DNA from: a phage | Direction: 5' to 3' (one strand) | Length of the DNA: 47,561 bases | Sequence record: PZ324410.1 | Shown here: positions 30,027-31,383 of the stretch, piece by piece | Layout: the number at the start of each line of letters is the position of its first letter | How positions within the stretch are numbered: position 1 is the first letter of the stretch | The notes under the pieces: model-generated | The model's database searches: none | What the model was told of the DNA's origin: nothing | Seen by the model: only the letters and a program-made list of their open reading frames with translations | Translations under genes and position numbers: made by a program

Positions 30027-31383
30027 ATCCAGTCTCCCAGCAAACATTTCTATTTCCGTGAACGGAAGGATGCTTGGTGAAGATGATGAGCTTTCTTTCT
30101 GTCTACGCGATGGCGATGTAGTTAACGTTTATTGCCAGCCGTCCGGAGCAATCGGAGACCTGATCGGTGCGATACTGAAACCAGTAACGAAGATTTTCTC
30201 TTTCCTTACACCGAAAGTATCCACGCCAAAAACGGATACCGGTTCGAAAACATCACCGAATACCAGCCTTAAGTCGCAAACCAACATTGCTCGCAACGGC
30301 GAGGCGCGCCCTGATAACTTCGGGCAGATTCGCGCGTTCCCTGATTTGCTTCAGGAATCATTATTCGAATACATCAATAATATTAAATACGTCACCGAGT
30401 TCATGAACTTTGGCCTCGGTAAGTATGATGTTTCTTCTGTGCGTTACTCTGAGTCAAACCTCGGTTCACTGGCTGGTGCGAGTTACACCATTTATCAGCC
30501 GGGAGAGGTTATTCCGGTTGTGTATGAACCTTACGCATTTGATGATGTTGATGGACAGGAGCTTTACGGGCCAAACGAACTTAATACCGACCCACCGCCA
30601 GTGGTTATTGAAACTGCAACAACAACCACGGTCACAGAAACAGAATTTGCTGGAGGTCAGATTGCTGTCAAAATACCGAAAAACTCAGCATTCGATTATT
30701 TCGTTGACCTAACCATGCCTCATGACGTGGTATTCAAGCTGAATATAACTTATGCGCAAGGTGGTGGCGCATCTGTCACCGAAAACGTTACGCTATCAGG
30801 AAGACTTGTCTCTGCAACAGAGACTGATGATGGCGGGCTGCCACCAGTAAACTACTGGTACACATTTATTATTAACAGCATCAACTACTCAGGCGCGCCA
30901 ATATCATCCCTGAATGGCGTGACGATTAATAACACCTATTTCAACCTGACAGATAACCAGCCGATTGTTTCTGGTCCGTACTTTTCACCGATTGATGGTG
31001 ATCAGCTTTGGGTGCACCTGCAACACCAGACCAATGATGGTAATGATTTCAGCGTGCTCATTGAGTGGTGGAAGATTGACGACGATAACGTTCAGATTCC
31101 CGGCACATATCAGTCGATGAACTATTATCAGGACGTGGACAGAAACGACACGTTCTACTATACAATCAAGCTAACCCCAGCTGCTGGAACTGGTCGCTAC
31201 GCGATTCAGATGAGACGGACAAACTCCCGGCACATATCAGTCGATGAACTATTATCAGGACGTGGACAGAAACGACACGTTCTACTATACAATCAAGCTA
31301 ACCCCAGCTGCTGGAACTGGTCGCTACGCGATTCAGATGAGACGGACAAACGACAGTTCAGACACATCAATTCTTCAGCTTGA
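29935..31383 (+). CDS. tail tip/host specificity protein, N-terminal part (I-like N-terminus fused to J-like region), ends in duplicated segment
   Basis: reading frame leaves the protein sequence inside the second copy of a 127-bp duplication and stops 32 nt later. Confidence 0.55.
31098..31351. repeat. perfect tandem duplication, 2 x 127 bp
   Basis: 31098..31224 is identical base for base to 31225..31351; flanking bases differ. Confidence 0.95.

Follow-up and report, generated by a model that had tools for sequence, protein, structure and literature searches.

The window analysed here (the whole 47,561-base stretch) is a complete siphophage genome, and one of its tail genes raises a question. 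The gene for the tail-tip hub protein is written as two reading frames, with a perfect tandem duplication of 127 bases where the two meet. Does the phage carry this duplication, or was it introduced when the genome was assembled? An earlier note on the sequence had preferred an overlap left by the assembler at the contig ends. A single-copy assembly of the identical genome, the arithmetic of the assembly lengths, the rotation of the sequence and the intact homologues of the split gene all agree with that preference. We are highly confident that the duplication is a bioinformatic artefact, namely an assembler k-mer end-overlap that was moved to mid-genome by rotation.

The earlier note had described two copies that are identical base for base and differ in their flanks, and had named a difference between the copies as the observation that would speak against it. 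Direct reading, Tandem Repeats Finder and a script all gave 127 identities in 127 positions and no indels (Table 1). On the window, Tandem Repeats Finder reported 31098..31351 with a period of 127, 2.0 copies, 100% matches, 0 indels and a score of 508. By script, the period-127 identity began exactly at base 31098 and ended exactly at base 31351, and there was no microhomology at the borders. The flanks were unlike on both sides: ACGTTCAGAT precedes copy 1 and ACGGACAAAC precedes copy 2, while the sequences that follow the two copies are TCCCGGCACA and GACAGTTCAG, respectively. When all 47,561 bases were searched, the runner-up among exact direct repeats was 18 bases long; because the longest other repeat is so short, a chance origin of the 127-base repeat is excluded. 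The script found no terminal overlap between the window's own ends.

Table 1. Positions of the features discussed in the text; positions in OR845258.1 are given for the segments that were matched to that record.
Feature	Window position	Strand	Position in OR845258.1	Remarks
terL (large terminase), 474 aa	1..1425	+		Terminase_3 E = 6e-35; Terminase_3C E = 1e-12
Alignment block 1	1..11218		11218..1	opposite strand
Alignment block 2	11142..31224		47511..27429	opposite strand
Alignment block 3	31225..47561		27555..11219	opposite strand
ECO95 1-6-1 contig ends, 77-base overlap	11142..11218		1..77 and 47435..47511	single-copy in the window
Tail-tip baseplate hub 2 protein, 828 aa	29935..32548 minus one 127-base copy	+		single ORF; annotated "tail protein" in relatives
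ORF-A, 482 aa	29935..31383	+		native residues 1-430, then 52 out-of-frame residues; probable artefactual truncation
ORF-B, 434 aa	31244..32548	+		native residues 395-828; starts at an internal Met inside copy 2; probable artefactual second half
Copy 1 of the perfect 127-base repeat	31098..31224			probable 3' end of the original contig
Copy 2 of the perfect 127-base repeat	31225..31351			probable 5' end of the original contig
Novel junction, GATGAGACGGACAAAC / TCCCGGCACATATCAG	31209..31240			needs both copies present to exist
Tape measure gene, imperfect tandem repeat	27459..27524			in frame; period 33, 2 copies, 78%; nested period 18; Ala/Thr-rich
HNH_3 + AP2 endonuclease gene	28423..29037	-		in place of the missing gp17 C-terminal part
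NlpC/P60 ORF, 166 aa	29526..30026			lambda-K position; E = 1.5e-8; phrog_329 minor tail protein
Tailspike	32588..34480			modular
Six 28-nt GC-rich hairpins	8876..8903, 16122..16149, 21511..21538, 23549..23576, 29118..29145, 37219..37246			T-rich tract after each

A length of 127 bases is not divisible by 3, so the hub gene appears as one ORF of 482 aa and another of 434 aa. Re-derivation of both ORFs bore out the earlier claim that the reading frame is lost in copy 2, and deletion of one copy by script restored a single ORF of exactly 828 aa, where about 828 had been expected. No Shine-Dalgarno-like motif was present in the 25 bases 5' of the ORF-B ATG (ACAAACTCCCGGCACATATCAGTCG).

The restored protein matched phrog_469 (tail protein) in one stretch covering residues 3-824 (E = 6e-248). 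It shares 95% identity with gp70 of phage IME207 (YP_009322783.1, "tail protein") over 828/828 residues with 0 gaps, and matched chain E of PDB 9OCC (Sf11 gp14, 828 aa) over residues 1-828 with 1,790 bits. It is also the exact gene call on OR845258.1, the record of Escherichia phage ECO95 1-6-1. An exact-sequence look-up of the 482-aa product of ORF-A, on the other hand, found it on record in no public assembly.

In the cryo-EM structure of the Shigella phage Sf11 tail (PDB 9OCC), gp14 is the Baseplate Hub 2 protein (chain E, 92 kDa, 828 residues) (PMC12724387). In that structure gp14 is one chain with residues 81-827 modelled, it occurs in 3 copies per virion, and it was detected by mass spectrometry (PMC12724387). 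The tail tip of this close relative is thus built from an intact single polypeptide, and a protein frameshifted at residue 430 would lack an essential part. The assignment of the window gene to baseplate hub 2 draws on its full-length match to the structurally defined Sf11 gp14 and on its position, with TMP, DTP and BH1P on the upstream side and the tailspike on the downstream side. Sf11 gp14 and IME207 gp70 resemble it in length (828 aa), align with it end to end and lie in the same order of TMP, DTP, BH1P, hub and tailspike. Both are unsplit, whereas in the window as written the additional 127 bases divide the gene. The hub gene of this phage is almost certainly intact in reality. We also considered programmed frameshifting, as well as two separate genes as the natural state, and rejected both: the homologues are all single 828-aa genes, and the split is due solely to the extra 127 bases.

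The earlier note had called this a J-like tail-tip gene, and that description holds for position and role. Like lambda gpJ, the hub gene is the last large gene of a tail-tip module of the TMP-M-L-K-(I)-J type and follows directly on a K-like NlpC/P60 ORF; gpJ, the central tail fibre or tip attachment protein of lambda, is likewise a trimeric hub of a siphophage tail tip. Membership of the lambda J sequence family did not hold. The restored 828-aa protein had no match at E <= 1 to any Pfam family, including those of lambda J, and neither half had one. The proteins also differ in length, lambda J having 1,132 aa, and in function: in the window's phage, in contrast to lambda, receptor binding is assigned to a separate P22-like tailspike.

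The tail module as a whole runs from a 791-aa tape measure protein through a short distal tail protein, a minus-strand HNH gene, a minor tail protein resembling BH1P, the NlpC/P60 ORF and the hub gene to a tailspike that carries a Tail_spike_N domain. Several features of this module were observed in passing. Within window 27950..29092, the distal tail protein has only 158 aa and corresponds to residues 1-155 of Sf11 gp17 (457 aa; E = 9e-95). The C-terminal ~300 residues of gp17 had no counterpart anywhere in the window by tblastn, and the endonuclease gene lies where they would be. The same distal-tail/HNH layout occurs in IME207 and ECO95, but Sf11 lacks an HNH gene at this place. To judge from these gene layouts, the arrangement looks like a homing-endonuclease cassette that replaces a DTP domain. 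The N-terminus of the tailspike is conserved in the window even so; in Sf11 it is attached to the tail via the DTP adaptor domain.

The NlpC/P60 ORF and the beginning of the hub gene share 92 nt. The ORF is uncalled in ECO95 and unannotated in IME207 and Sf11, where a gap is left at this place, while Skate and STGO-35-1 annotate an NlpC-P60 or tail tip assembly K gene. The tailspike has a modular build: its N-terminal part (residues 1-134) matches residues 1-134 of Sf11 gp13 (E = 1e-68) and residues ~60-140 match Tail_spike_N, whereas the remaining ~490 residues match another family, phrog_8875, and show no match to Sf11 gp13. This pattern suggests that a receptor-binding domain may have been swapped on a conserved tail-attachment domain. 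The six hairpins listed in Table 1, each followed by a T-rich tract (e.g. AAAAGCCCCATAAAGGGGCTTTGTTTTA), look like intrinsic terminators and would be candidates for that role. Several of them lie at ORF ends, and the one at 29118..29145 lies inside the 29093..29563 gene.

If the duplication were genuine, its junction could be expected in independent sequences. Megablast returned about 150-160 relatives among the phages of Salmonella, Escherichia and Shigella, with identities of 80-90%, including IME207 (genus Shuimuvirus) and Sf11 (genus Cedarrivervirus). Every related record (~150) crosses the site with the query length minus 127, that is, with one copy, and the copy 1/copy 2 junction was present in 0 of these ~150 records. 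The repeated sequence is single in OR845258.1, S.Kent 1-2-1, IME207 and Sf11. In a three-way DNA alignment a 127-column insertion appeared in the window alone, and Sf11 DNA aligned twice across the same 127 bases. Searches with the junction 32-mer (31209..31240) gave no exact match among IMG/VR viral contigs and none among metagenome contigs.

A further single-copy sequence is OR851068.1 (S.Kent 1-2-1 NODE_196, 3,043 bp, coverage 3,147x), which covers window 30297..33466 with one copy and one mismatch and comes from the same study as OR845258.1 but from a different host enrichment. Its neighbor among the S.Kent 1-2-1 contigs, OR850879.1, overlaps it by 77 bases at window 30297..30373. The length of this overlap is consistent with the use of k = 77 by the laboratory behind the S.Kent contigs and ECO95 1-6-1.

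The decisive comparison was with OR845258.1, an unannotated raw SPAdes contig (NODE_2_length_47511_cov_4027.73). The window aligned to its opposite strand in three blocks, each 100% identical and free of mismatches and gaps (Table 1). The two blocks that meet at 31224/31225 share the same 127 record bases, 27429..27555. As both blocks use these bases, OR845258.1 is single-copy here and reads through the site at ~4,000x.

OR845258.1 itself has a direct terminal repeat, of 77 bases, and both of its ends map to one place in the window, which is single-copy there (Table 1). The lengths of the two sequences reconcile exactly: 47,511 - 77 = 47,434 = 47,561 - 127. Given this arithmetic and the 100% identity, the window and OR845258.1 are one and the same circle of 47,434 bp, to which each adds a segment of length k. 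Both 77 and 127 are standard SPAdes k values, and the break points of the two assemblies differ. On sequence comparison, two repeats that differ in length, each matching a standard k, at two different arbitrary places in the same genome read as the signature of assembler overlaps and not of biology. The public OR845258.1 record still carries its untrimmed 77-base terminal overlap, and its true length is 47,434 bp; its last 77 bases ought to be removed.

How did an overlap of contig ends come to lie mid-genome? The earlier note had proposed that the contig was rotated to begin at terL, and the ends of the window agree with this. Base 1 of the window is the first base of the terL ATG, and bases 47561 and 1 of the window are the adjoining bases 11219 and 11218 of OR845258.1. 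Because of this end-to-start contiguity, the window is a rotated circle, and the assembly did not end where the sequence now does; combined with a first base that coincides with the terL ATG, the contiguity shows that the sequence was re-oriented after assembly. Pharokka offers such a step, its --dnaapler option turning contigs to a terL start (PMC13338908).

We propose the following course of events. A 47,434-bp genome that is circularly permuted, or that assembles as a circle for another reason, would have been put through a de Bruijn graph assembler with a final k of 127, perhaps SPAdes, or MEGAHIT with k-max 127. The circular path would have been output as a linear contig with the same k-mer at its start and its end, giving 47,434 + 127 = 47,561 bases and a break point that happened to lie within the tail-tip hub gene. 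The contig would then have been cut at the first base of terL, without trimming of the overlap, in a re-orientation of the Pharokka/Dnaapler type. This would join the old ends, so that the 127-mer came to stand twice in direct succession, head to tail, at 31098..31351. The identities of the assembler and of the rotation tool are guesses from the number 127 and from the terL start, and the junction itself probably has no supporting reads.

The published record contains precedents for the separate steps. The earlier note had given 127 as the largest k of common de Bruijn assemblers, and it is the longest k permitted in SPAdes (PMC4699355). It had also stated that such assemblers leave an overlap of length k at contig ends; 127-bp direct terminal repeats are documented on a SPAdes phage contig, where they were read as a sign of completeness (PMC9009655). 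According to the Phage Annotation Guide, contigs can exceed 100% of the genome length and terminal repeats may end up stranded mid-sequence (PMC8785237). Outside the phages, a fungal assembly provides an analogous case, in which the two pieces of a split gene overlap perfectly by 127 bp (10.1101/2025.10.13.682091). A literature search for an outright statement that the 127-bp SPAdes overlap must be trimmed before rotation returned indirect statements only (PMC9009655, PMC8785237, PMC10438801, PMC4699355, PMC13338908); PMC10627814 and 10.1101/2025.03.20.644286 were of no help on this point.

The repeat in the window resembles the known overlaps of circular de Bruijn contigs (SPAdes k = 127, 99, 77 and 55; MEGAHIT k127), which are often taken to mean "DTR / circular / complete". 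It is likewise a perfect repeat of exactly k bases, and the window length minus k is the genome length obtained from an independent assembly. Short internal repeats of k-like size (~79 bp) have also been found in short-read assemblies of przondoviruses; these were unsupported by read depth, proved to be artefacts by Sanger sequencing and were removed after Sanger or long-read checks (PMC10438801). They differ from the present case in lying near the genuine direct terminal repeat (DTR) regions of T7-like phages, whereas the window's repeat lies in a tail gene of a circle-closing siphophage.

The same observations bear on the other ways in which such a repeat could arise. A genuine 127-bp tandem duplication in the isolate or a subpopulation, produced by replication slippage or illegitimate recombination and splitting or inactivating the baseplate hub 2 gene, would account for the fact that the given sequence contains both copies. 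We consider it very unlikely, however, as its length would have to equal the SPAdes maximum k exactly, the other 47,434 positions are all identical to an assembly without the duplication (OR845258.1), and the repeat borders show no microhomology. The split would also hit a central and essential tail-tip protein, which in a solved virion consists of one chain of 828 aa, so that a propagating lytic phage with it is improbable; ORF-B, moreover, has no ribosome-binding motif. Nor did any independent sequence or assembly contain the junction, be it among the ~150 relatives or among viral and metagenome contigs, and the truncated product is not on record. It could be speculated that a real frameshifting duplication persists in a subpopulation, complemented by wild type in a mixed infection or tolerated through a two-piece hub, with the match to k a coincidence; we see only a slim chance of this. 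ECO95 1-6-1 may represent another isolate or library than that of the window, and a sister clone with a real duplication is conceivable to that extent.

Another possibility is that the 127 bases are a true physical DTR of a packaged linear genome, left internal by rotation. Short DTRs do occur in some phages, and real terminal repeats can land mid-sequence (PMC8785237). A real DTR, however, would keep its length and position whatever the assembler k, while the identical genome, when assembled independently, breaks at 11142..11218 with a repeat of 77, that run's k, and has 31098..31351 as single-copy sequence in ECO95. The window's repeat also sits within a conserved structural ORF, and short-read assemblers mostly collapse real DTRs (PMC10438801). 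As the repeat of the sister assembly differs in both length and position, we rejected this explanation, whose probability we regard as negligible. We think it equally far-fetched that a different artefactual step, such as manual circularisation, a merger of overlapping contigs or a long-read end overlap, produced a repeat that happens to be 127 bases long. Every overlap that is left untrimmed before a rotation would look alike, but the one in the window is perfect and exactly 127 bases long, and overlaps of manual or long-read origin are rarely exactly a canonical k. In addition, the sister assembly behaves likewise with the canonical k of 77, and the adjacent S.Kent contigs overlap by 77 bases. 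The assembler overlap moved by rotation accounts for what was found here: perfect and adjacent copies, a length equal to an assembler k, an independent assembly with a single copy, and evidence of rotation.

These data suggest a general trap in the handling of phage genomes. Rotation to terL before the k-overlap is trimmed turns a recognisable terminal repeat into a hidden internal duplication that shifts the reading frame. A scan of rotated phage genomes for perfect tandem duplications of 55, 77, 99, 127 or 141 bases would catch such errors. In the present case the record as written has an excess of 127 bases and presents an essential structural gene of 828 aa as a pair of pseudo-ORFs, so that one of the two 127-base copies (31225..31351) ought to be removed from the sequence. 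Left in place, the error would mislead annotation, pangenome analysis and protein clustering, and any verdict that the phage is defective. For the phage itself the duplication would have no biological significance, because its tail-tip hub gene is intact.
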